Source: Promethearchaeota archaeon
GTDB lineage: Archaea; Asgardarchaeota; Lokiarchaeia; Sigyniarchaeales; Promethearchaeaceae
DNA length: 32,000 nucleotides
Direction: 5' to 3'
Assembly (NCBI GenBank): GCA_016933055.1
Contig: JAFGBS010000027.1
Coordinates: 1-32,000, forward strand
The position numbers and the translations under genes are program-made. Shown here piece after piece: positions 712 to 29,708 of this stretch (position 1 is its first letter; each line of letters starts with the position of its first letter). A model generated the notes under the pieces. It did no database searches and was not told the DNA's origin. It saw only the letters and a program-made list of their open reading frames with translations.

Positions 712-819
712 AGCCCCGTAGTGTAGTGGTCAATGGTGGTTAATAGGGTGTTCTCTACACCGTACCAAGCATTTGGGACTCTGAATCCTGAGACAGCGGT
801 TCGAATCCGCTCGGGGCTA
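712..819 (+). tRNA. tRNA-Gln(CUG) with ~35-nt non-canonical intron in the D-loop; CCA not encoded
   Basis: Acceptor stem AGCCCCG(712-718)/CGGGGCT(812-818), discriminator A819. D-stem GTGT(721-724)/GCAT(769-772). Anticodon arm TGGGA-CT-CTG(781-783)-AA-TCCTG. T-arm AGCGG-TTCGAAT-CCGCT. An extra 35 nt lie between D-loop GGTCAA and GCAT. Confidence 0.92.
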
Positions 820-1009: not shown

Positions 1010-2149
1010 TCATGACTTATTCTCGTTGTTCCAGTCCAGTAACCGTCTTTGTCCTGCAATTTTACGTATGTGCGTTATATCTTGACTCACTTCTAGAGTT
1101 CCTACATACTTTCCCCTCTCATCCCGAATGGCAAAATACCTAATATGGACAAATATTCCATTTATATCCATCCAGAATTCAGCAACCTCTTTCTCTCCAG
1201 ACTTAAATGCTTCTAAGATACGGTTCACAATATGCTGACTTTTCGGTGGGTGGCAATTCTGTACTTTCCTCCCGATTACTGCAGGACTGCGGGGGAAAAT
1301 TCGGTCTTTTATGTCTGAATAATACATAACTTCATCCTTCTCATTTACGAAAGAGATGTCGACAGGTAAATGCATGAAAATACGATTGATTTGATTCACT
1401 GTCAGTTTACCCACATTTAGATTCAGTTTCTCCTTATCCAAATCTGTAGTTCTTATTTCTATGCTATGAATACCTCTAATAGTCATTGGTTTCCACTCAT
1501 TTCCGGGTTTAATACCAAATGCAAATCCAATCTCCTCTTCTCCTTGTTTTACTCTAGCCCAGTCATCATCAGAAAGTTTCTCTAATGCGACGGGAAATAA
1601 TATTTTTTCTTCCTTATCGATCATTTCCTCTATTGCATTCAATAACTCATCCATCATTTTCGTGTCTCTTTCTTTGATCATCTTACGGATATCATCGTGT
1701 TTAGCCCACATTATACTGCATGGTCCTGAAAATCCTTTGGATTCTAAAATTGGGAATAATTGGTTTTCAAGGCGAGTGTAGTGAATCTCTATTTGTGCTA
1801 ATTTCATTAATTTCAGCGGTCTAAATTTTTCCCTTGATTCTTGAATTAATTTTCGCGCTAGTTTGTTCTCTTTCTGGTATGTATAGAACGGATGCCCCGA
1901 AGTTTCTTCAGTACGGTTAGCAGGAAGTGCCTCCTTGAAAACACTAAGATGTACATCGCATAATTTGGTAATCTGTTCTGGGGTAAGATCGCCTTTTTCA
2001 ATGAGCTCTTGCTCTATTTGGGCAATTTGATCCGCGCTGATGTTCTCAAATGATTCTTTAAATTCCCTTTTTACATCCTCTATATCTTTTCCATCATGTA
2101 AATCTATGATAATTTTTTTTAGTTTTTTGATTCGATCTAGTTGGTTCAT
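1010..2149 (-). CDS. DUF438 / hemerythrin-like / PAS_10 domain protein
   Basis: N-terminal 'LKKIIIDLHDGKDIEDVKREF...I.QIEQELI..G..EQI.KLCDVH' (DUF438); HP....EN...HYxRxENxLFP...MW..HDDIR...MIxKEExILFP (hemerythrin-like); C-terminal 'LPVDISFV...V.YYS...RIFPRSPAVIGRKVQNCHPPKS' (PAS_10). Start moved from the ORF-track 2236 to ATG 2149 (MNQLDRIKKL), where the family domain begins. Confidence 0.85.
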   Translation of the reverse strand: MNQLDRIKKLKKIIIDLHDGKDIEDVKREFKESFENISADQIAQIEQELIEKGDLTPEQITKLCDVHLSVFKEALPANRTEETSGHPFYTYQKENKLARKLIQESREKFRPLKLMKLAQIEIHYTRLENQLFPILESKGFSGPCSIMWAKHDDIRKMIKERDTKMMDELLNAIEEMIDKEEKILFPVALEKLSDDDWARVKQGEEEIGFAFGIKPGNEWKPMTIRGIHSIEIRTTDLDKEKLNLNVGKLTVNQINRIFMHLPVDISFVNEKDEVMYYSDIKDRIFPRSPAVIGRKVQNCHPPKSQHIVNRILEAFKSGEKEVAEFWMDINGIFVHIRYFAIRDERGKYVGTLEVSQDITHIRKIAGQRRLLDWNNENKS

Positions 2150-2268
2150 GGTAAGATCTTCAGTAGTGTTACCTTTTTTAAACCATGAGCGAACATATTC
2201 GTCCTTGCTAAACCCCACCAATAATACATGAACCAATAGTTTTTCTATTAAATCCCTAACAAAATAGT

Positions 2269-9668: not shown

Positions 9669-11654
9669 GTGGAACAACTAAGACAAAAATCTAAGAAAAA
9701 TTCCATTTTTTTAGCTGGAATTGTGGCAACCATCGCAACCCTGGGTATTTTAATCCCTGGCATCGTCTTATGGGTAAATCACCCCATGATTTCCACTAGT
9801 TATTATCATTATAACCTTCAATATCGAGCAGGGCAAGAACAAACGTATCCAGAAATCGTTGAAAATTCCTTGCAACATATTATATACATGTATGGAAACC
9901 ATTCAACTTGGAATTATACTATAGAATGCCAATTTATGTTAATTGAATATGTACATGATAATTATCCAACTCTGTTCGACGAAATCCAAGCCCAGAACTC
10001 TAGAGGACAGCTTGAATTAATCGTTGTCCAATTTTCAAGTGCATTTCACGTTCCTTACCCCGTGAAGAATTTTAGAGAAAGCGTCAATTATACTAGTATT
10101 CGGATGGAGGAATATGGATTGCGACAATCCATATTGATTTTGTTACAAGAAGGTCAGTGGCTTCCCGCATTCGGACAAGCGGTACCTAATCACGTAGCAG
10201 CGATTCTTAGTATCGAACAATGCGGTTATTTCAATTATTATCCCAAACAACCAGTTCTCGAATGGAATTTTGGGGGAGTGAAGAAACACGCATTTATGAT
10301 TCCATGGTTTCCTCGATTTGAGGCGGGAGTTTACCATCATCAAATTTACACGCAAGATGGGGAGAAAATCAATACGGGTGGATATGGAAGCTTTGATGTT
10401 GCTGTAGATTTTGACTTCAATCCTTTAAAACAGGCAAATTTAGAAAAACGCCATATAGAATTAGAGGAGAATGGGAATTTATTTATGACTTTAGAGGATT
10501 TTTATAATTATTGTGTCGAAAATGAATACGTCGAATCAATGGAAAAGTATATTCCAGAAACTGAATGGGTAGCAGCCCAATATCAGACATTTTGGACATG
10601 GATGGGGCAAGGCAGTGGGTGGACTGATGATGGACACCTCTTAGCTCGCATATACAATGCAATGACCATAACCCAGGCCACAGAGTTGTTACTGAATAAG
10701 TCTTATACTCATGCGGTGATTAATGATACTAATTTCGCAGAATGGGGTCAATATCGGATTGGAGGGCAAGACGGTAAACTTTTACAAGCGAAAAAACTTG
10801 TTTGGGAAGCTCAAGTAACCGATACTACGGGTATTTCGCCACGATATTTCGAATTCTGGTATGGCATGAATAAAACTAGTGATGCCTTGCATATCTGTTC
10901 TGAGATCATTGAAAATATTCGATTCAAACCCACTTTTAATACCGTATTTGGGAATAATCTGCAAATCAATCCCTATACTTTATCTATAGAGAATCAAACC
11001 AGCAGTTTTCTCAACGTTACGGATCTAGGAGTATTGAGTATTTGTGAAATAGAGGGATTGTTTGACCTCGCCATCTTATCAACTCAATCGGATGAATATG
11101 CGTTGTATCCGGCAGCTCTTGAGGTGTCACGTATGAATTTAAAAGCTAATGATTGGTCACAAGAATATTTTCAACTAAATTTCAAGTTTCGAGGGAAATA
11201 TAACGTCGAATACAATAACACGGGTGATAACTATATTTCTGAGGAGGAACTGAATTCTATGAATACTATGGGAGTTATCTCAAAAAATGATATATCCATA
11301 CATTTCTTCGGGAATTGGTCCACTGTTTCTTATTCTCCCGCATTATTAGAAAATGAGAGTATCAATCTCGTGCGAGATCATTATTATTCATTTCCTTATG
11401 AATCCAAAGCAGAGTGGTGGATTCTCCTCTCTGCCTGCAATGGAATGGTATACAACCCTCAAGGAGGATTCGGGATCGTAAAAAATAATACGGTTCGGCA
11501 TCTTGCAGCAAATTGGCGTTCTACCCATATAGAATTTGCAGAAACCGAAATTAAGTATAATTCAACGCATCAATATTTTATTGTACCTGGAACGGTGCAG
11601 GAAGTACTTCGGTTCGCTAATCAAATAAATTCCTATAGGTGGATAACCTTATGA
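9669..11654 (+). CDS. Membrane-anchored, probably extracellular GH57-like glycoside hydrolase with uncharacterised C-terminal region
   Basis: N-terminal basic stretch plus TM helix. Segments matching GH57 conserved regions in order: HYNLQY (CSR1), GQLELI (CSR2), LQEGQW (CSR3, nucleophile E), QDGEKI (CSR4, acid/base D), AQVTDTTG (CSR5). Confidence 0.65.
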   Translation: MEQLRQKSKKNSIFLAGIVATIATLGILIPGIVLWVNHPMISTSYYHYNLQYRAGQEQTYPEIVENSLQHIIYMYGNHSTWNYTIECQFMLIEYVHDNYPTLFDEIQAQNSRGQLELIVVQFSSAFHVPYPVKNFRESVNYTSIRMEEYGLRQSILILLQEGQWLPAFGQAVPNHVAAILSIEQCGYFNYYPKQPVLEWNFGGVKKHAFMIPWFPRFEAGVYHHQIYTQDGEKINTGGYGSFDVAVDFDFNPLKQANLEKRHIELEENGNLFMTLEDFYNYCVENEYVESMEKYIPETEWVAAQYQTFWTWMGQGSGWTDDGHLLARIYNAMTITQATELLLNKSYTHAVINDTNFAEWGQYRIGGQDGKLLQAKKLVWEAQVTDTTGISPRYFEFWYGMNKTSDALHICSEIIENIRFKPTFNTVFGNNLQINPYTLSIENQTSSFLNVTDLGVLSICEIEGLFDLAILSTQSDEYALYPAALEVSRMNLKANDWSQEYFQLNFKFRGKYNVEYNNTGDNYISEEELNSMNTMGVISKNDISIHFFGNWSTVSYSPALLENESINLVRDHYYSFPYESKAEWWILLSACNGMVYNPQGGFGIVKNNTVRHLAANWRSTHIEFAETEIKYNSTHQYFIVPGTVQEVLRFANQINSYRWITL

Positions 11655-12538
11655 CTGACATACCTCATCAAACTATTATTCCTCAACATACAGAAAACGG
11701 AGTTTCCCTAGCCATAAGACATTTAGTGGTTCCCGCTTGTTTTGAGTTGCTATTTGGAGTTGTATTGTACTTCTTCGCTTATCTGATTTTAAATAAGTTA
11801 CAAATTGATGCCCTTCCTCCGTTTACTATTAGTAATGTCCCCATAATTCAAGGAATTGCTATTGGATTCATGGTAGTATCATCATTTCACTTTATTTATT
11901 TGAGTTTGTTGAATCGGTTCTACAAAAATAAAAGCTTTCTCTTCATTGGATATATTCTTGGATGTATTGCTGTACCTTTTATCCCAACAGGTGCATTTTT
12001 TGGTATTTTATTCATAACTGATCTGAATACGATTAGAGTAGCAAAGGATCCAAAAGCAGTGGAGATTCTAGCATATAATAAAAATGAAGTAGGAATTGAG
12101 ATAAAGACCAATGCTTTAGTGATGCTGCATCTTCCAGTAGTATTATATTATTTGTACCTTTATTTACTAACAATTCAGTCTGATATTCTTTACCCTAACT
12201 TTCGTATGGGTGTGATTTTAAGTTTGAAAATTTTCATGTATGCATATTTTGTGATTTACACCCTGCAATTTGTAGCTGGTATTATTTTTCGATTCTACGG
12301 AGAAAAACTATGGGAACAAATCGTTCTAATTGTATTCAGTATATTTAATTTGCTTGCAGTAGGAATTGTGATCCAAACATATGTATGGTTAAATTGGGCG
12401 ACTTTGGAATTTTCGGGAATAATGCTAGTAGTTGGAAATCTGTTTTGGGTCATCGGCATTGTTATAAATCCCATTGGAATCTTTTTTAGTAGACATTTTA
12501 TTAAATTATTACGTCAAATGGGATCCAACTTAAATTAA
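11651..12538 (+). CDS. Hypothetical polytopic membrane protein (~7 TM)
   Basis: Multiple hydrophobic segments. ATG 11651 overlaps the GH57 stop (ATGA, 11651-11654), which suggests translational coupling and makes it a better start than 11639. Confidence 0.75.
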   Translation: MTDIPHQTIIPQHTENGVSLAIRHLVVPACFELLFGVVLYFFAYLILNKLQIDALPPFTISNVPIIQGIAIGFMVVSSFHFIYLSLLNRFYKNKSFLFIGYILGCIAVPFIPTGAFFGILFITDLNTIRVAKDPKAVEILAYNKNEVGIEIKTNALVMLHLPVVLYYLYLYLLTIQSDILYPNFRMGVILSLKIFMYAYFVIYTLQFVAGIIFRFYGEKLWEQIVLIVFSIFNLLAVGIVIQTYVWLNWATLEFSGIMLVVGNLFWVIGIVINPIGIFFSRHFIKLLRQMGSNLN

Positions 12539-16373: not shown

Positions 16374-16985
16374 TTACACTCGCAATTTATACTCAAATTT
16401 ATAGGGAGATGGTGTAGTTTGTGCACGATTTTTAAAAATCCACATCTCTTTCGCAATCGTTTGCATTAGATCCTCGATCATTATCCCGTCTTTGGTGGAA
16501 ATAAGAAAATGAATTTTCATTCCCAGTTCTTCTTTCAAACTAGTAATATTTTGTTCTACCATCGGATACATATTTTCGGTGACCAAATCAAACTTAGATC
16601 CAACCAGATAAATCGGGGTTCCAGGATCTGTATTGGATCGCCACATTTTCAGCCATCCAGGTAAATTCATAGCAGAAGTAAATCTGGTTACATCATACAA
16701 TAGGATACCCCCATCAGCTCCGTGAATATATGCAGGAAGCATGAATCTAAATCTGTCTTCTCCCCCTAAATCCCATACAGTAAGATCTATAGAAATACTC
16801 TCTTCTAAGTTTAATTGGATATCAAGATGAATCAAACTGAAATCGATTCCAATGGTCATTTTTGTGATAGGATTAAAGTTTCCAGTTGCCAGCCGTTCCA
16901 CTAGAGTGGTTTTTCCTACCCCTCCATCTCCTAAAATACAAAATTTTAACGCATATTTCTTATTTTTTTGCTGTGGCTGATTCAA
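16374..16985 (-). CDS. Rab/Ras-like small GTPase (eukaryotic signature protein) with variant G3/G4/G5
   Basis: G1 GDGGVGKT, G2 TIGIDF, G3 WDLGGE, Rab-like 'RFRFMLPAYIHGA', G4 GSKFD, G5 STK; no C-terminal Cys. Confidence 0.9.
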   Translation of the reverse strand: MNQPQQKNKKYALKFCILGDGGVGKTTLVERLATGNFNPITKMTIGIDFSLIHLDIQLNLEESISIDLTVWDLGGEDRFRFMLPAYIHGADGGILLYDVTRFTSAMNLPGWLKMWRSNTDPGTPIYLVGSKFDLVTENMYPMVEQNITSLKEELGMKIHFLISTKDGIMIEDLMQTIAKEMWIFKNRAQTTPSPYKFEYKLRV

Positions 16986-17725: not shown

Positions 17726-18781
17726 ATGAAAAAACGAACTTGTGCCGTAATAGGATGCTCAGGGATGGCGGGACAGCAATTCGTAGAAGCCCTTCAAAAT
17801 CATCCATGGTTCGAACTCACGGGTTTATTTGGCTCCTCGCGTACTGGTAAATCTTATAAAGCAATTATGCGTTATACTGATATTAATTTCACAACAATTA
17901 TCGAGGATATGCAAATAGAAAAGATGGATGCGTTCCAAGCTGAGGAATACGATATAGTATTTTCCGCAGTGCCTTCCGAGGTAGCTGCAGAAATAGAGGC
18001 TTCTATTGCTCAAAAAATACCAGTTGTTTCTACAGCTTCTCATTTCCGATATTTTGACGACGTTCCAATATTTCTCCCGATTGTAAATGCAAAACATTCC
18101 GATTTATTCAAGATTCAACAAGAAAACAGGAATTGGGACGGATTTGTCTGTCCTGGACCGAATTGTACAACTGTGGGCCTTTCAATTAGCTTATATCCTA
18201 TTTTTCAGAAATTTGGTCTAACCTCTGTTCATTTAACATCTATGCAAGCTGTTAGTGGAGCTGGGTACGATGGGGTCACCTCTTACGAAATTTTGGGGAA
18301 CATAATACCTCATATTCCCCAGGAAGAAGAGAAAGTCCGAAAAGAGCTGAAAAAAATACTCGCAACTTATGAAAACGGAAAATTAACGATTCCAGACATA
18401 CCAATCGAAGCTAAATGCAATCGGGTACCCGTTTTAAATGGCCATACACAATGTGTATTTTTTCAAACCAAAACAGAAGCATCTTTAGAAGAAATTCAAA
18501 AACAACTAAAGGAATTTGTTAGTGAAACTCGAGAATACAAGTTGCCTAATTGTCCCGAGAATCCAATCAAATTATATACGAAAGAGGACAAATTCCGTCC
18601 ACAACCCCGATTGGATTTAAAACAACCTAATAGTGGTATGATTACTTTTGTAGGCGGTTTAGAATCAACTGTTTTTCCAAATGGGTTCAAAATGACGGTT
18701 TTATCCCATAATACGGAAATCGGTGCAGGCCGTGGAGGCGTTTTAAGTGCAGAATATCTTACTAAAAAAGGGCTAATATAA
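17726..18781 (+). CDS. asd: Aspartate-semialdehyde dehydrogenase (archaeal-type)
   Basis: GCSGMAGQ Rossmann motif, LQNHPWF, catalytic PNCTT, SMQAVSGAG, EEEK, CNRVPVLNGH, FRPQPRLD, HNTEIGAG. Confidence 0.95.
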   Translation: MKKRTCAVIGCSGMAGQQFVEALQNHPWFELTGLFGSSRTGKSYKAIMRYTDINFTTIIEDMQIEKMDAFQAEEYDIVFSAVPSEVAAEIEASIAQKIPVVSTASHFRYFDDVPIFLPIVNAKHSDLFKIQQENRNWDGFVCPGPNCTTVGLSISLYPIFQKFGLTSVHLTSMQAVSGAGYDGVTSYEILGNIIPHIPQEEEKVRKELKKILATYENGKLTIPDIPIEAKCNRVPVLNGHTQCVFFQTKTEASLEEIQKQLKEFVSETREYKLPNCPENPIKLYTKEDKFRPQPRLDLKQPNSGMITFVGGLESTVFPNGFKMTVLSHNTEIGAGRGGVLSAEYLTKKGLI

Positions 18782-18786
18782 ATATC

Positions 18787-19701
18787 GTGAAAAAAATGGT
18801 AAACAGACTAAAACTATTAAAAAACACATTTACAGCTCTGATCTCTCCCATGGATCGAGATGGAGATTTAGATAAAAAGCAATATAGAACCTTTATTCGG
18901 TCTCAAATTGAAGCAGGATGTGGTTTAGTCCCCTGTGGAACCACGGGTGAATCTGCCACTATGTCGCATCAAGAGCATGAATCCGTGGTCCGGTGGTGTG
19001 TGGATGAAGCTAACCAATCCTCAAAAAAACCCTTTGTTCTTGCAGGTGCAGGTTCTAATTCTACTCGAGAAGCTACCAGCTTGTCAGTACATGTAGAATC
19101 TTTGGGTGTGGACGGTATTTTGAGTGTAACTCCCTATTATAATAAACCCACTCAGCAAGGTTTGTTCGAACACTATTCTGCTATTGCACGTTCAGTAGAT
19201 GTTCCTATTGTCATTTATAATGTACCTGGTAGAACAGGTTGCAATATATTGCCTGAAACTGTAGCAAAACTGGCTATAAAATTTGATAATATTAAGGGAT
19301 ATAAAGCAGCCAGTGGCAATTTAGACCAAATCATCCAAGTAATTGAACAAACCCCGGATGATTTCATTGTGATGAGTGGAGATGATGGAAAAACCTATGA
19401 TATCATGAAAATGGGAGGAAAAGGGGTAATTAGTGTGGCTTCAAATATTATTCCCAAACAAATGATTGAATTTACTAAGTTGATCGAAGATAATAAATGG
19501 GAACTTGCTTTGAGAATGAATGATAAACTTCAACCTTTGTTTAGCACTCTTTTTATAGAGTCCAATCCGGGACCAGTAAAATATGCAGCAGAATTACTAG
19601 GTATAATGGATAGAACCCTTCGATTACCTTTAGTACCGCCCACCGAGCAATCTCAAACCGCAATACGAAAAGTATTGATGGATCTCGAGCTGATAAAATG
19701 A
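18787..19701 (+). CDS. dapA: 4-hydroxy-tetrahydrodipicolinate synthase
   Basis: GTTGES, TPYYNKP, IYNVPGRTG, Schiff-base Lys in GYKAASG, SGDD, GVISVASN, FIESNPGPVK. Confidence 0.95.
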   Translation: MKKMVNRLKLLKNTFTALISPMDRDGDLDKKQYRTFIRSQIEAGCGLVPCGTTGESATMSHQEHESVVRWCVDEANQSSKKPFVLAGAGSNSTREATSLSVHVESLGVDGILSVTPYYNKPTQQGLFEHYSAIARSVDVPIVIYNVPGRTGCNILPETVAKLAIKFDNIKGYKAASGNLDQIIQVIEQTPDDFIVMSGDDGKTYDIMKMGGKGVISVASNIIPKQMIEFTKLIEDNKWELALRMNDKLQPLFSTLFIESNPGPVKYAAELLGIMDRTLRLPLVPPTEQSQTAIRKVLMDLELIK

Positions 19702-20552
19702 ACATGAGTATAATTAAAATCGGATTAATAGGTGCAGGAGGAAAAATGGGGAAAATAATTATTTCCCTAATCGAACAAAATCCTGAGTTAAATTTAACTG
19801 CTGCTTTTGAACATCCGAATTCTAGAGATTTGGGAATGCCGGTAAACTTACGTTCAAATTCTCCTTCTGAGTTAAATTACATTCCAATTACTCTGATCGA
19901 AGAAATTCTTTCTAGTACGAGTATAGATGTATGTATTGATTTTTCTCATCCAGATTGCACCAAAAAATGGGCTCCTTTTATTTTACAACACAAAATCCCT
20001 ATTGTAATCGCTACCACTGGATTATCTGATCAATTTCATGAAGAGATGCAAAAAGTAGCGAAAGAACACCGTACATCTGCATTAATTTCAACTAATATGG
20101 CATTTGGAATGAATTTATTCATTAAAACTGCTAAACAGCTCGCATCATATATACCAAATTGGGATATAGAAATAATTGAGAAACACCATCATCATAAATT
20201 GGATTCACCAAGTGGAACTGCCTTAACTTTAGCAAACGAAATAAAGCAAATCATAGCTAAGGAATCGGATTCAGAAGAAATTTTTACCTTTGGAAGAGGT
20301 AAAGGTAAATTTCCTCGAAAGATTGGTAGTAGAGAAATCGGAATTCATGCCATACGAGCAGGAGATATAGTGGGGGAACATACAATTATTTTTGCAGGTT
20401 CGGGAGAACGGTTGGAGTTTACTCACCGAGCACATTCGAGAGTATGTTTTGGTGAAGGTGCACTAAACGCAGCAAAATTCCTGTTAGAACACAAACTTCA
20501 AGGAAAACTCTATCAAATTTCAGATGTTGTTGAGTACGCTGGGAGGAAGTAA
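19698..20552 (+). CDS. dapB: 4-hydroxy-tetrahydrodipicolinate reductase
   Basis: GAGGKMG, IDFSHP, ATTG, EKHHHHKLDSPSGTA, HAIRAGDIVGEH, HRAHSR; ATGA overlap with dapA. Confidence 0.95.
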   Translation: MNMSIIKIGLIGAGGKMGKIIISLIEQNPELNLTAAFEHPNSRDLGMPVNLRSNSPSELNYIPITLIEEILSSTSIDVCIDFSHPDCTKKWAPFILQHKIPIVIATTGLSDQFHEEMQKVAKEHRTSALISTNMAFGMNLFIKTAKQLASYIPNWDIEIIEKHHHHKLDSPSGTALTLANEIKQIIAKESDSEEIFTFGRGKGKFPRKIGSREIGIHAIRAGDIVGEHTIIFAGSGERLEFTHRAHSRVCFGEGALNAAKFLLEHKLQGKLYQISDVVEYAGRK

Positions 20553-20558
20553 ATAAGA

Positions 20559-22730
20559 ATGGAATATTTAAAGTGGTTGAAAAATAAGGATTTAGAATAC
20601 AGGGATGGGGAATTATTCTTCGGAGAACACTGTGTATCCTCGCTGGGGGAAAAATTCGGTACTCCCACTTTTATCATAAACGAATCCACTATTCGAAAAC
20701 GCTATGATGAACTTCACTCAATATTAAAAACGATAAATTCAAACATGCAGATCAATTTTGCCGTCAAGGCTAATAATAACTTGCATGTTTTACGGTTACT
20801 TGATTCCTTGGGGGGACATTTTGATGTAGTATCTTCAGGGGAAGCCTTCTTGTGTAAAGCTGCAGGTATTCAGCCTGGTAAGATTTTACAAACCAGCAAT
20901 AATTGGACGGATGAAGAACTCGAATATGCTGTAAAAAACCATATCTCTATTAATTTAGATGCTCCTTCCCAAATTCACCGTTTAAATAACATTGTCAATA
21001 AATACGATGCAGAGAAACCAATTGTTTCATTTCGAGTTAATCCGATTTTTGGAGCGGGGCACCATTCACACACCATTACTGCGGGAGAACACGTAAAATT
21101 TGGTATATTAGAAGATAAAATAGTAGAAGTGTACAAACAGGCCTTAAATGCGGGATTCAAACGCTTAGGAATTCATATTCACATAGGTTCTGGGATCTTA
21201 AATGCTGCAGAATTCGAGAAAGCAATTCAAAAATATTACAATATCATCCAGAAAATCATTTCCGAACTCGATATTATTTTTGAGTTTATCGATTTTGGAG
21301 GAGGGTTAGGAATTCCCTATAAACCCGATCAAGATCCTATAAATGTTCAAGGATACGCAAATCTAATAAAAAAATACCATGAGGAATTTACAAGAAAATT
21401 GAATTTAGGAAATCCGAAATTTATATTCGAACCCGGAAGATTTTTGACAGCTGAATCTTGTATTATTGTATCAAAAATTAATACAATCAAAAAACGCAGT
21501 AATAAGATATTCATCGGATGTGATACGGGATTCAATACTTTAATTCGACCAGCATTTTACGGTTCTTATCACCATATTATTCCTACCCAAGATATTGAAA
21601 GCTATATGGATAAGAATGTGGATATTGTGGGTCAAATTTGTGAATCTGGTGATGTTCTCGGCAGGGATCGGCATTTTCCTCAAGTGAAAGAAGGGGACTA
21701 CATTTGTATTATGGATACAGGTGCATATGGATATTCCATGTCATCAAATTACAATGCGCGACCAAGAGCGATGGAATTATGGATTCACAATAATCAACCT
21801 CCTAAAATCGTGAGAACGAGAGAAAATTTTACCAGTCTTCTAGAAAATCAAGTAATTTCTTTGCCTTCTGAAGTATTTACACAATCAATTCCCTTTATTA
21901 AAATGCATGGCACAGGAAATGATTACATCTACTTGGATTTTTTCAAATATACATACCCCGAGATCAATTATTTCGATTTGGCAAGAAAAATTAGTCATCG
22001 GAGATTTGGTGTAGGTGGAGATGGATTAGTGCTAATAATACCCAAATCAACAAATGTTGTTCGCATGAGAATGTTCAATACAGATGGTTCTGAATCTGAA
22101 ATGTGTGGAAATGCAATTCGATGCATAGGTGGATACTGTTACGGACAAGGATATGTAAATACATCTGAGTTTTTTGTAGAAACAGAGGGGGGGATAAAAA
22201 AGATTATTGTATTAGGACCCAACAAAATTCGAGTGAATATGGGTTCTCCAATATTAGAAGGATTGAAAATTCCTACCTCTGTTGATAGAACTCCAGTAAT
22301 TGATCATGAAATTTCTGTAAATGGATTCTCGGGTAAGTTTACTGCTGTATCCATGGGGAATCCTCATGCAGTGTATTTTTTAAACGATATTTCATCATTA
22401 AATTTGGAAAAAATAGGTTCTCTTCTTGAGCATCATCCCTTTTTCCCAGAACGCGTAAATTCAGAATTTGTTGAAATCCTCAATCGAAATGAAGTGAATT
22501 TCAGAGTTTGGGAAAGAGGATCAGGTGAAACTTGGGCGTGCGGAACAGGTGCTTCAGCAGCTTTAGTAGCGGGAGTGCTGAAGGGAGTTTTGGACAATAA
22601 AGTATTATTTCACTTAAAAGGAGGAGATCTTACGCTCGAAACTAATGAAGATTTAACTGAGGTCTGGAAAACGGGACCTTGGGAATTTATTGGTGAAGGA
22701 ATGTACAGATATTCTCAGAATTTATCTTAA
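20559..22730 (+). CDS. lysA-dapF: Bifunctional diaminopimelate decarboxylase / diaminopimelate epimerase (LysA-DapF fusion)
   Basis: Residues 1-~435: FAVKAN (PLP Lys), HIGS, DFGGG, EPGR, ICESGD, GAYGYSMSSNYN. Residues ~444-723: FIKMHGTGND, EMCGNAIRC, SMGNPH, RVNSEF, WERGSGETWACGTG. One reading frame with no stop. Confidence 0.95.
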   Translation: MEYLKWLKNKDLEYRDGELFFGEHCVSSLGEKFGTPTFIINESTIRKRYDELHSILKTINSNMQINFAVKANNNLHVLRLLDSLGGHFDVVSSGEAFLCKAAGIQPGKILQTSNNWTDEELEYAVKNHISINLDAPSQIHRLNNIVNKYDAEKPIVSFRVNPIFGAGHHSHTITAGEHVKFGILEDKIVEVYKQALNAGFKRLGIHIHIGSGILNAAEFEKAIQKYYNIIQKIISELDIIFEFIDFGGGLGIPYKPDQDPINVQGYANLIKKYHEEFTRKLNLGNPKFIFEPGRFLTAESCIIVSKINTIKKRSNKIFIGCDTGFNTLIRPAFYGSYHHIIPTQDIESYMDKNVDIVGQICESGDVLGRDRHFPQVKEGDYICIMDTGAYGYSMSSNYNARPRAMELWIHNNQPPKIVRTRENFTSLLENQVISLPSEVFTQSIPFIKMHGTGNDYIYLDFFKYTYPEINYFDLARKISHRRFGVGGDGLVLIIPKSTNVVRMRMFNTDGSESEMCGNAIRCIGGYCYGQGYVNTSEFFVETEGGIKKIIVLGPNKIRVNMGSPILEGLKIPTSVDRTPVIDHEISVNGFSGKFTAVSMGNPHAVYFLNDISSLNLEKIGSLLEHHPFFPERVNSEFVEILNRNEVNFRVWERGSGETWACGTGASAALVAGVLKGVLDNKVLFHLKGGDLTLETNEDLTEVWKTGPWEFIGEGMYRYSQNLS

Positions 22731-22762: not shown

Positions 22763-24208
22763 ATGACAGACGAATTACAAATAATGAAAATTGGAGGATC
22801 CTGCTTATCCTCTGCTCAATCGTTTAACCAAATTGTAAACATTATAAATGAAACCCCATCTTCCATGGTCTTAGTTTTTTCTGCGTTTAATGGAATTACA
22901 GATCAACTGATTGAGACTATAGATTTAGCTTGCGAGGGAGAATCCCGAGCACTCAGTGCAAAATTAAAACGAATAGAGACGTTCCACGAGGAACTAATTG
23001 ATGGACTGTTCGAGGATTACCCCAAAGCCTTCAATGAAATGCGTTTGACACTTCAAGAAGTGATCGGTAAATTGATTTACTTACTTGAAGAATTAAAAGA
23101 ATTTGGTTGGAGTCCCTATTTCAAGGACTCGATCATGTCTTTTGGGGAAAAATTAAGTACTGCAATCATTTCAAAATTTCTCACTCTTAATCAGATCGAC
23201 CATGTGGTGTATCATGGAGAAGATCTAATCATTACTAATGACAAATTCGGGGATGCGATTGCGAATTTACCCTACACACAAAAACGTGTAGAGAGAGATT
23301 TACTCCCGAAACTTGCTAACAATCATTATAAAAAAGTTATATGCGTTGAAGGTTTCATAGGAAGAAGTATATCTGGCTTGACAACCACTTTAGGACGTGG
23401 TGGAACGGATTACACAGCAGCCGTGTTAGCTAGGACTCTTGCAGTAACGGGCAAATTCAAATCCATTTCCTTGATATTGTGGAAAGATGTAGCAGGCATC
23501 TATTCTGCGGATCCGAAATATGTGGAACACGCGAAATATTTAGATACTATCAGTTATGCTATGGCTAAGGAATTGAGTTTTTTTGGTGCGAAAATCTTGC
23601 ATCCCAAATGTATTTCCATAATTGAATCTTTCAATATTCCGGTTTACATTAAGAAATTCCCAGCTGATGAAGATAGGGAATCATCAAAGCAAGAGGATAT
23701 TGGCACTTTAATTACGGCAGAAGAATGCGAGAAAAATATATATTCAATCAGTATCATCCAAGAAGCTTATATTATATCAGTTACATCTGAGACTTTTGTC
23801 AACGCTCCTGGGATTTTAGGAGAAATTTTTTCGAAATTAGGGGAAGAGGAAATTAGCGTTAATGTTGTCACCCAATCCAGCTCTGAAATTAATACATCCT
23901 TCGTGATCTCAAAATCAGACGGTCCAGAAGCTATGAAAATTTTGAAATCTAATCCTAAATTCGAGGAATGGTTCAAGATCAAGATGGAATTAGTTGGTAT
24001 CATAGCTATTATCGGGAAGGATATCGCTACCAGTAAGAATCAAACAAAGATCTATCATGCATTAAGTAAAGTGGGAATTAATCCAATAGCTGTAGCCCAA
24101 GCTAGCGATGCTTTAAACATATCCATTATTATATCCAAAAATGCCATTAAAACGGCAGCAAATGCCATTAATGAGGCATTTTTCAAATCTAAAAAAGGAG
24201 AACAATAA
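22763..24208 (+). CDS. lysC: Aspartate kinase with C-terminal ACT domains
   Basis: MKIGGS, VFSA, SFGEKLS, TTLGRGGTDYTA, DVAGIYSADP, ELSFFGAKILHP; two ACT repeats. Confidence 0.93.
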   Translation: MTDELQIMKIGGSCLSSAQSFNQIVNIINETPSSMVLVFSAFNGITDQLIETIDLACEGESRALSAKLKRIETFHEELIDGLFEDYPKAFNEMRLTLQEVIGKLIYLLEELKEFGWSPYFKDSIMSFGEKLSTAIISKFLTLNQIDHVVYHGEDLIITNDKFGDAIANLPYTQKRVERDLLPKLANNHYKKVICVEGFIGRSISGLTTTLGRGGTDYTAAVLARTLAVTGKFKSISLILWKDVAGIYSADPKYVEHAKYLDTISYAMAKELSFFGAKILHPKCISIIESFNIPVYIKKFPADEDRESSKQEDIGTLITAEECEKNIYSISIIQEAYIISVTSETFVNAPGILGEIFSKLGEEEISVNVVTQSSSEINTSFVISKSDGPEAMKILKSNPKFEEWFKIKMELVGIIAIIGKDIATSKNQTKIYHALSKVGINPIAVAQASDALNISIIISKNAIKTAANAINEAFFKSKKGEQ

Positions 24209-25453
24209 ATGGTCCATATAAACGAAAACTTTCTCAAATTAAAATCTCGTTACTTATTTTCTAGGATCGGAGAAAAAACTAGCGAGTATCAGAACACACA
24301 CCCAGATAAAAAAGTTATTCGGTTCGGTATAGGGGACACGACCCAACCATTACCATCTACAATACTTCACGCATTCCATCGTGGAGTAGATGAGATGGGA
24401 GATGCTGCAACATATAGAGGATATGGACCTGAACAAGGCTACCTATTTTTACGAGAATTAATTGCTAAATTCGACTTTCAAGAGCGAGGAGCAGACATTA
24501 AACCTGATGAGATATTCATCAGTGATGGATCAAAATGTGACACGGGCAATATATTGGATATTTTTGGTGAAAATATTGTAGGGATTACGGATCCCGCATA
24601 TCCCGTATACGTTGATACCAACATTATGGCTGGAAATAGCGGACCTATACAATCTAATGGTCAATATGAAGGATTAGTGTATCTTTCCGCAAATGAAGCT
24701 AATAAATTTTGTCCAGAACCCCCTAATCATCAAGTTGATATAATTTACTTATGTTCTCCTAATAATCCTACAGGAGTTGCAATGAATAGGCAACAATTGA
24801 CACAATGGGTAAATTACGCTCTTGATCATCATTCTGTGATTTTGTTTGATGCAGCCTACGAAAAATACATCCGAGATGACAATTTTCCTCATTCTATTTT
24901 CGAAATTCCCCATGCGAAAAAAGTCGCGATTGAGTTCCGAAGTTTTTCTAAAACTGCGGGATTTACAGGAGCTCGTTGTGCTTTTACCGTAGTTCCAAAA
25001 GACTTGATGGGAGAAGATAGTGTAGGAACTTCAGTTTCACTGCATGATTTGTGGAATCGAAGGCATTCTACGAAATTCAATGGAGTATCGTATCCGGTTC
25101 AATGCGCAGCAGCTGCGGCATACACTGAACAAGGGAACAAAGAGATCACTGAGCTACTTAATTATTACCGTTATAACGCTGAATTGATAAAAAAAACTTT
25201 ACAGAAAATAGGATTCCATTATTGGGGTGGCGAAAATTCTCCCTATATTTGGGTAAAGACTCCTCAGAACCTCAGTTCATGGGAATTTTTTGATTTCATG
25301 CTGAACAATCTCCAAATTGTGATAACACCAGGTTCTGGATTTGGAATTGCAGGGGAAGAATATTTCCGAATTACGTGTTTTGGCAATCATGAGGATACAC
25401 AAATTGCAACTGAACGCATGTTAAGATGGGATTGGAATGAACTTATCCCATAA
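24209..25453 (+). CDS. dapL: LL-diaminopimelate aminotransferase
   Basis: INENFLKL..YLF, GIGDTTQP, GYGPEQG, SDGSKCD, DPAYPVY, CSPNNPTG, DAAYE, SFSKTAGFTGARC (PLP Lys), NSPYIW, TPGSGFG. The start abuts the lysC stop (TAAATG) with an upstream GGAG. Confidence 0.95.
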   Translation: MVHINENFLKLKSRYLFSRIGEKTSEYQNTHPDKKVIRFGIGDTTQPLPSTILHAFHRGVDEMGDAATYRGYGPEQGYLFLRELIAKFDFQERGADIKPDEIFISDGSKCDTGNILDIFGENIVGITDPAYPVYVDTNIMAGNSGPIQSNGQYEGLVYLSANEANKFCPEPPNHQVDIIYLCSPNNPTGVAMNRQQLTQWVNYALDHHSVILFDAAYEKYIRDDNFPHSIFEIPHAKKVAIEFRSFSKTAGFTGARCAFTVVPKDLMGEDSVGTSVSLHDLWNRRHSTKFNGVSYPVQCAAAAAYTEQGNKEITELLNYYRYNAELIKKTLQKIGFHYWGGENSPYIWVKTPQNLSSWEFFDFMLNNLQIVITPGSGFGIAGEEYFRITCFGNHEDTQIATERMLRWDWNELIP

Positions 25454-29138: not shown

Positions 29139-29708
29139 TTGACACGAACTGATGAAGAATTAACCATGGGTGTTACTGGAGATAAGGGAGAGGTCGTTTT
29201 TAAGGTACTGGTGATAGGAGATGGCTCTGTTGGTAAAACAACTTTATTGAGAAAATATGTACACCATCAATTTGAAACTGAATACATCCCAACGGTTGGT
29301 GTGAATATACTTAAAGAACAAATTGAAATCAATAATAAGACTGTTAACCTAATGTTTTGGGACATCGCAGGGCAGCCTCAATTTCATTTATTGCACAAAG
29401 TGTATTATAATGGAGCAAACGGGGTGATTTTAATGTTTGATCTGACGAATAGTCCGTCATTTTCAAATGTAAATAATTGGTATAACGAACTAGTTAAATA
29501 TAAGTTGGAGAATACTCCTATCGTTTTAGTGGGTAATAAATCCGATTTAAAACATGAGCGGAAGATAATCGAACCTATGGCACATAGTAAAATGGAACAA
29601 CTTGGAATCTCTGCATATTATGAAACATCTGCACTCGACGGTAGCAATGTGAAAGCAGTTTTCAATAAAATCATACAGTTAATGATGGAACGTAAAAAAC
29701 ATTTTTAA
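29139..29708 (+). CDS. Rab-like small GTPase (eukaryotic signature protein) with canonical G1-G5
   Basis: FKVLVIGDGSVGKT, YIPTVGV, WDIAGQ, YYNGANG, GNKSDL, ETSAL; no C-terminal Cys. Start TTG 29139 or ATG 29166. Confidence 0.93.
   Translation: MTRTDEELTMGVTGDKGEVVFKVLVIGDGSVGKTTLLRKYVHHQFETEYIPTVGVNILKEQIEINNKTVNLMFWDIAGQPQFHLLHKVYYNGANGVILMFDLTNSPSFSNVNNWYNELVKYKLENTPIVLVGNKSDLKHERKIIEPMAHSKMEQLGISAYYETSALDGSNVKAVFNKIIQLMMERKKHF

Follow-up and report, generated by a model that had tools for sequence, protein, structure and literature searches.

The last two enzymes of lysine biosynthesis, diaminopimelate decarboxylase (LysA) and diaminopimelate epimerase (DapF), are encoded by a single gene, lysA::dapF, in the 32,000-nucleotide stretch of a Promethearchaeota archaeon genome analyzed here (the window; contig JAFGBS010000027.1 of assembly GCA_016933055.1). 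Combining domain, structure and operon data with comparisons to related genomes, we consider it highly likely that this gene encodes an intact bifunctional LysA-DapF enzyme that arose recently, at the level of a genus, by the joining of overlapping neighbor genes. The fused gene is the fourth of six packed genes (gaps of -4 to 32 nt) in the operon asd-dapA-dapB-lysA::dapF-lysC-dapL, the features of which are as follows:

17726..18781, + strand: asd, aspartate-semialdehyde dehydrogenase (archaeal type), first gene in the operon (TIGR00978 asd_EA, 336.5 bits)
18787..19701, + strand: dapA (TIGR00674, 321 bits)
19698..20552, + strand: dapB, with a 4-nt overlap with dapA and 6 nt before lysA::dapF (TIGR00036, 239 bits)
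20559..22730, + strand: lysA::dapF fused gene, encoding P0001; single open reading frame, both equivalog models above cut-off, AlphaFold2 mean pLDDT 96.3
20559..21863, + strand: LysA domain, residues 1-435 (TIGR01048, 413.6 bits over residues 14-431)
20766-20768, + strand: PLP lysine K70 of LysA, motif FAVK70AN
21639-21641, + strand: C361 of LysA, motif C361-E-S-G-D365
21864..21887, + strand: junction, residues ~436-443 (SLPSEVFTQS region), with no stop and no start codon
21888..22727, + strand: DapF domain, residues 444-723 (TIGR00652, 264.5 bits over residues 445-716)
22104-22106, + strand: catalytic C516 of DapF, motif EMC516GN
22539-22541, + strand: catalytic C661 of DapF, motif AC661GTG
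22763..24208, + strand: lysC, aspartate kinase with ACT domains (Pfam AA_kinase and ACT_9; TIGR00657, 270.8 bits)
24209..25453, + strand: dapL, LL-diaminopimelate aminotransferase (TIGR03542 DAPAT_plant, 573.8 bits, cut-off 364.7)

The fused gene consists of one frame of 723 aa that extends from an ATG at 20559 to a stop codon at 22728-22730 with zero internal stops. The preliminary description of this DNA had read the frame as an in-frame fusion of an N-terminal LysA and a C-terminal DapF, and the open reading frame together with the Pfam and NCBIfam matches confirm this architecture. The beginning of DapF at residue 444 (nt 21888) as well as the residue numbers and motifs listed there are also correct, and both catalytic sets are intact as claimed, with FAVK70AN, C361-E-S-G-D365, EMC516GN and AC661GTG all present. 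In contrast to a stand-alone DapF, the DapF domain here lacks its own start codon and ribosome-binding site and is attached to LysA through its N-terminus; similarly, the C-terminal tail of the LysA domain, unlike that of a stand-alone LysA, leads directly into the DapF domain. An internal restart at M450 (KMHG) was considered and rejected: no Shine-Dalgarno-like sequence is found upstream of this codon, and a restart at this position would delete the first DapF strand.

In the N-terminal half, the LysA equivalog model TIGR01048 (NCBIfam) scores 413.6 bits against a cut-off of 297.9, and the match at residues 14-431 corresponds to model positions 4-416 of 417. In the C-terminal half, the DapF equivalog model TIGR00652 (NCBIfam) scores 264.5 bits against a cut-off of 114.65 over residues 445-716. 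Pfam divides P0001 into Orn_Arg_deC_N (residues 44-298), Orn_DAP_Arg_deC (residues 274-388) and then two DAP_epimerase (PF01678) repeats, the second of which comprises residues 596-709, and the model for a bifunctional DapF/glutamate racemase (NF038284) stays below threshold with 98.6 bits against a cut-off of 350. We defined conserved columns as those identical in at least 93% of the stand-alone proteins from the exhaustive search described below (94 LysA, 45 DapF). The LysA half has the consensus residue at 34 of 34 such columns, and the conserved residues that are kept include K70, GGG247-249, EPGR291-294, C361/E362/D365 and Y390; the DapF half has it at 56 of 56, including E652/R653 and the two catalytic cysteines, C516 and C661, which are located one in each repeat.

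An AlphaFold2 model of P0001 built from a 117-row alignment consists of two well-folded domains (mean pLDDT 96.3), and pLDDT falls to 74 only in the block of residues 431-440. The pTM of 0.76, set against a pLDDT of 96, suggests that the mutual position of the LysA and DapF domains is undefined by the model. In Foldseek searches, the N-terminal part matches the solved LysA structure 2p3e (E 3e-45, TM 0.93 by target), and model and match together predict a fold-type III PLP barrel with a beta-sandwich for this part. The C-terminal part matches the solved DapF structures 2otn and 8qzy (TM 0.88-0.90 by target).

Stand-alone LysA proteins (TIGR01048; 2p3e from Aquifex aeolicus, 1twi/1tuf from Methanocaldococcus jannaschii) have the same fold as the N-terminal part (TM 0.92-0.93 by target) and agree with the fused protein at the PLP lysine and throughout the conserved columns. 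The sequences nearest to this part are stand-alone Asgard LysA proteins of 437-447 aa with 50-54% identity; the names they carry are Promethearchaeota, Lokiarchaeota, Thorarchaeota and Hermodarchaeota. Likewise, stand-alone DapF proteins (TIGR00652; 2otn from Bacillus anthracis, 1gqz/2gke from Haemophilus influenzae, 8qzy from Pseudomonas aeruginosa) have the same two-repeat DAP_epimerase fold and share the 56 conserved columns in full, together with the two catalytic cysteines, and the separate DapF proteins of family relatives are 56-57% identical to the DapF part. The LysC-LysA fusion (NF006515, PRK08961) is also a lysine-pathway enzyme joined to LysA, and its LysA part aligns with P0001; NF006515 scores 263.9 bits (cut-off 802), with the match limited to the LysA half (model positions 501-859). 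It differs from the protein described here in the fusion partner and in domain order, and lysC is a separate gene in this operon (22763-24208).

Judged by these model assignments, the operon is the entire aspartate-to-lysine route in its LL-diaminopimelate aminotransferase variant. DapL produces LL-DAP, DapF interconverts LL-DAP and meso-DAP by means of two cysteines, and LysA removes the carboxyl group at the D-centre of meso-DAP in an irreversible step. Based on this, we suggest that DapL, encoded two genes downstream of the fusion, supplies LL-DAP, that the DapF domain epimerizes LL-DAP to meso-DAP, and that the PLP-dependent N-terminal LysA domain decarboxylates meso-DAP to L-lysine; in other words, P0001 very probably functions as a bifunctional LysA-DapF enzyme. 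We infer both enzyme activities from the integrity of the two domains and from their genomic context. Apart from the fused gene, the host genome (3.76 Mb, 91% complete, in 36 contigs) has no DAP_epimerase match and no LysA that reaches the cut-off. A 401-aa paralog encoded on another contig (C6) was considered as a second LysA and rejected: with 112-115 bits against the cut-off of 297.9 it lies far below the LysA threshold and is thus a different fold-type III decarboxylase. MurE was not found in this 91% complete archaeal genome, which leaves lysine as the one evident destination of meso-DAP. Outside the lysine operon, the window also encodes Ras-family GTPases, which together with the names of the nearest LysA sequences fit an Asgard host, and Rfam finds a tRNA match in it where ARAGORN finds none.

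It could be argued that one of the two domains has been altered or lost its function. DapF would then be, for example, an appendage with only a structural or regulatory role, or the decarboxylase would have a different substrate. Both the fold-type III decarboxylases and the DapF-like racemases include members that have evolved to use other substrates, and the weaker PDB matches of P0001 include BtrK, a D-Orn/D-Lys decarboxylase and O-ureido-serine racemase. However, both domains score well above their equivalog cut-offs, all highly conserved columns are kept, and the two domains are the sole candidates for their reactions in a DapL operon that is complete in all other respects. Moreover, conservation among the fused relatives is similar in the LysA half (68-72%) and in the DapF half (70-77%). 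We therefore consider a change or loss of function in either domain very unlikely. A second explanation is technical: the window is part of a metagenome-assembled genome, and two genes of the organism could look like one if sequencing or assembly had introduced a false frameshift or dropped a stop codon. The comparison with close relatives argues against this. P0003 (TFG21284.1), from a NCBI metagenome-assembled genome of the same GTDB genus (G131), is a 740-aa open frame with the same fusion, and its identity to P0001 is 68% over the LysA domain and 70% over the DapF domain; the corresponding values for P0002 (ENA ERZ27247852) are 72% and 77%. In both assemblies the fused gene is found in the same operon order. 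The presence of the fused frame in two more independent assemblies implies that it is neither a chance open frame nor a local sequencing error: the three assemblies are 27-32% divergent, and in each of them a single frame stays open through the junction, the linker is equally long, and no remnant stop or start codon is present. In addition, the junction differs from that of an unfused relative by a multi-base gap rather than by a single-base slip. Taken together, the chance that the fusion is an artifact is negligible.

The origin of this protein is illuminated by Candidatus Lokiarchaeum ossiferum (G137), which belongs to the same GTDB family and the genome of which is a single contig of 6,035,313 bp; it encodes P0030 (in NCBI the LysA of Ca. 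Lokiarchaeum ossiferum) with 100% identity. Its operon, asd-dapA-dapB-lysA-dapF-lysC-dapL, has the same order with lysA and dapF as separate genes. The two genes share 8 nt, with the dapF ATG within the last lysA codons (ATGACTAG), a GGAGGTG is located a few bases 5' of this ATG, and the dapF frame is +1 relative to that of lysA. Read from the DNA, this overlap together with the GGAGGTG is the picture of translational coupling. A three-way DNA alignment suggests that the two fused genomes lack ~22 nt at the ribosome-binding site, start and stop, a size that comes from one uncertain alignment across a poorly conserved junction between proteins of ~50-57% identity; given that 22 = 3x7+1, a loss of this size would bring the lysA and dapF frames into register. 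Thus, we suggest that the ancestral operon had lysA and dapF side by side, with an overlap of a few bases and with their translation coupled. A small deletion would then have removed the stop codon of lysA along with the start codon and ribosome-binding site of dapF and thereby placed the two frames in register. Because a fusion of this type would arise from adjacent genes in register, the domain order would reflect gene order and not reaction order. From the LysA N399 column to the DapF F446 column all three fused kin have 46 residues, compared to 37 + 4 for the median stand-alone tail and head, so that the link amounts to ~5 residues beyond a normal LysA tail and DapF head; the junction sequence varies among the three while its length is constant.

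The direction of the change, from split to fused, is well supported by gene order and phylogeny. In maximum likelihood trees, the three fused Asgard sequences form one clade (SH-aLRT 98-100); in the LysA tree this clade is nested with seven stand-alone Asgard LysA proteins (SH-aLRT 100), and in the DapF tree it is sister to one stand-alone Asgard DapF (SH-aLRT 100). Further members of the family (G143, G141 and G132) have a separate DapF of 286-311 aa. Across the phylum, DapF was detected in 135 of 400 genomes, and only the host genome (G000) and G131 have it within a frame longer than 700 aa. With the split genes present in the same operon of Ca. Lokiarchaeum ossiferum, the Asgard fusion is best explained as a genus-level event.

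As an exhaustive search with phmmer shows, the architecture also exists outside this genus; the search covered 1.84 billion proteins, each representing a 50% cluster. Among the best 150 matches are 12 collinear LysA-DapF proteins of 676-757 aa, which together with P0001 and P0002 gives at least 14, and a single protein in which DapF precedes LysA (P0140). Pfam confirms the fused architecture in all of them, including 13 other LysA-DapF representatives. The named members come from Ca. Bilamarchaeum sp. (MGV8084825.1, a cluster of 7 sequences) and Ca. Aerophobetes (RLE13822.1, a cluster of 15 sequences); nine further fused representatives are unnamed clusters. The non-Asgard LysA-DapF proteins have the same collinear architecture and are 25-42% identical to P0001. 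In both domain trees, they occupy several separate positions beside stand-alone proteins, and common descent of the Asgard fusion with the other fused proteins was recovered in neither tree. This placement, apart from each other and next to stand-alone proteins, suggests that the fused proteins are parallel inventions rather than orthologs. The label "fused" changes 6 times on the DapF tree and 11 times on the LysA tree, of which at least 3 and at least 6 changes, respectively, are forced by well-supported branches; these counts come from trees that left out the nearest stand-alone relatives of the 11 non-Asgard fusions and in which several fused rows are on long branches. The trees indicate at least 3-6 independent origins of LysA-DapF, an approximate number in view of several long branches.

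The same census bears on the novelty of the protein. The preliminary description named no characterized LysA-DapF, which agrees with our searches: a full-text literature search found no paper describing such a fusion, and a Foldseek search of the PDB found no single chain covering both parts. The literature matches dealt with LysC-LysA (lysAC), with horizontally transferred dapF or lysA, or with unrelated uses of the word fusion. The architecture itself is already visible in databases in at least 14 representative clusters, one of which has a UniRef entry from Ca. Aerophobetes (A0A662DI34) titled "Multifunctional fusion protein". LysA-DapF is in this sense rare and uncharacterized, but not new. 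A cell with no need of free meso-DAP for peptidoglycan had been proposed as a plausible setting for the fusion; the occurrence of the fusion in bacteria (Aerophobetes) implies that a peptidoglycan-free cell is not a precondition.

What, then, might the fusion do for the cell? The most likely consequence is a fixed 1:1 co-production and co-localization of the last two steps of the pathway, which would be cost-free in a cell with lysine as the only evident use of meso-DAP. Alternatively, as the preliminary description suggested, the fusion may have been selected for substrate channeling or kinetic coupling: meso-DAP would be passed directly to a LysA site within one particle and the reversible epimerase would be pulled towards lysine, and this would keep free meso-DAP low. 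LysA is a dimer with shared active sites. Each particle would, by analogy, carry two DapF domains, and a particle built on this dimer could hand meso-DAP from the tethered DapF to the decarboxylase and in that way act as a net irreversible LL-DAP-to-lysine catalyst. The idea draws on the repeated, independent fusion of LysA and DapF (at least 3 forced changes in the DapF tree to 6 in the LysA tree), on the very short link between the domains, and on the apparent lack of another meso-DAP consumer given that MurE was not found. However, lysA and dapF are commonly neighbors, which would be expected to give rise to such recurrence just as well, and Aerophobetes bacteria, which presumably need free meso-DAP, have the fusion as well. 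Moreover, only one genus of the phylum is fused while close relatives keep two genes, and the structural model (pTM 0.76) has no defined inter-domain arrangement. We therefore regard selection for channeling as unlikely, a lowered level of free meso-DAP as an equally doubtful outcome, and a particle of the kind outlined here as improbable. If true, irreversible catalysis from LL-DAP to lysine would explain why the fusion was invented repeatedly in unrelated archaea and bacteria. In the model that we favor, two coupled neighbor genes were joined with a selective effect that we infer to lie between neutrality and benefit; no special channeling mechanism is needed for this.

Based on its genomic distribution and phylogeny, the Asgard LysA-DapF is an independent, recent, genus-level case of a rare and uncharacterized architecture and an ordinary fusion of neighbor genes. 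Public records label the fused protein only as "diaminopimelate decarboxylase"; with this label, pathway tools that read names would wrongly score such genomes as being without DapF. Beyond this annotation caution and the pair of split and fused genes, the finding adds no new chemistry and no new kind of system. What it provides is the clean and datable birth of a bifunctional enzyme, with overlapping, coupled genes on one side and a single gene in the sister lineage on the other in an otherwise identical operon. Ca. Lokiarchaeum ossiferum and the fused genus thus form a natural split/fused pair that would be a good system for addressing whether there is a kinetic gain in joining LysA and DapF.

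Outside the lysine operon, the window carries the following features:

712-819, plus strand, tRNA of 108 nt (Rfam, 51.3 bits, full model)
1010-2236, minus strand, 408-aa protein with DUF438, hemerythrin and PAS domains (domain content)
9669-11654, plus strand, ORF of 661 aa that overlaps the next ORF
11639-12538, plus strand, ORF of 299 aa that overlaps the preceding ORF
16374-16985, minus strand, Ras/Roc/Arf-family small GTPase (Pfam Ras, 96 bits)
29139-29708, plus strand, Ras/Roc/Arf-family small GTPase (Pfam Ras, 172 bits)

Ras/Roc/Arf-family GTPases are a eukaryote-like signature typical of Asgard archaea; one such GTPase also lies at the end of the syntenic contig that encodes P0002, a fused LysA-DapF relative (L025 12862-13121). 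The DUF438/hemerythrin/PAS protein is likely a sensor of oxygen/iron or of redox state, and the two overlapping ORFs matched nothing in Pfam at E <= 0.001. ARAGORN, against the Rfam match, found no tRNA anywhere in the window; the extra length of the match suggests an archaeal tRNA with an intron.

Several proteins combine LysA or DapF domains in other ways. In the exhaustive phmmer search of 1.84 billion representative proteins, P0140 (649 aa, on a JGI contig of 2.1 kb) carries the two enzymes in the opposite order, DapF-LysA, whereas P0198 (687 aa) has approximately 400 N-terminal residues without a Pfam match followed by DapF, and in P0227 (770 aa) LysA is fused to a MurB-like FAD domain. 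The last record is filed under the mussel Potamilus streckersoni and may represent bacterial DNA within that assembly. At G197:C217:1485-1751, in another Asgard genome, a 570-aa open frame matches DapF residues 2-90 only; either part of a DapF has perhaps become attached to an unrelated sequence, or the frame may be an effect of the contig end.

Besides the fused protein, the window's own genome encodes another fold-type III PLP decarboxylase, 401 aa long (G000:C6:96573-97667; L004 1363-2568, plus strand), which scores far under all NCBIfam cut-offs, the top model being lysA (115 bits versus 297.9). In G141, a member of the window's family with a separate DapF, the order is dapA-dapB-dapF-lysC-dapL (C240; L019 5138-12058), with lysA absent between dapB and dapF and a divergent LysA, 34% identical to that of the window, downstream of dapL. 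This locus is another rearrangement of the same lysine operon. In the phylum scan, which used one protein query only, a DapF match was absent in 8 of the 13 genomes of this family, including the single-contig genomes G134 (4.4 Mb) and G142 (4.3 Mb). On this single query, the lysine operon seems to be patchily distributed across the family, raising the question of whether some members are auxotrophs.
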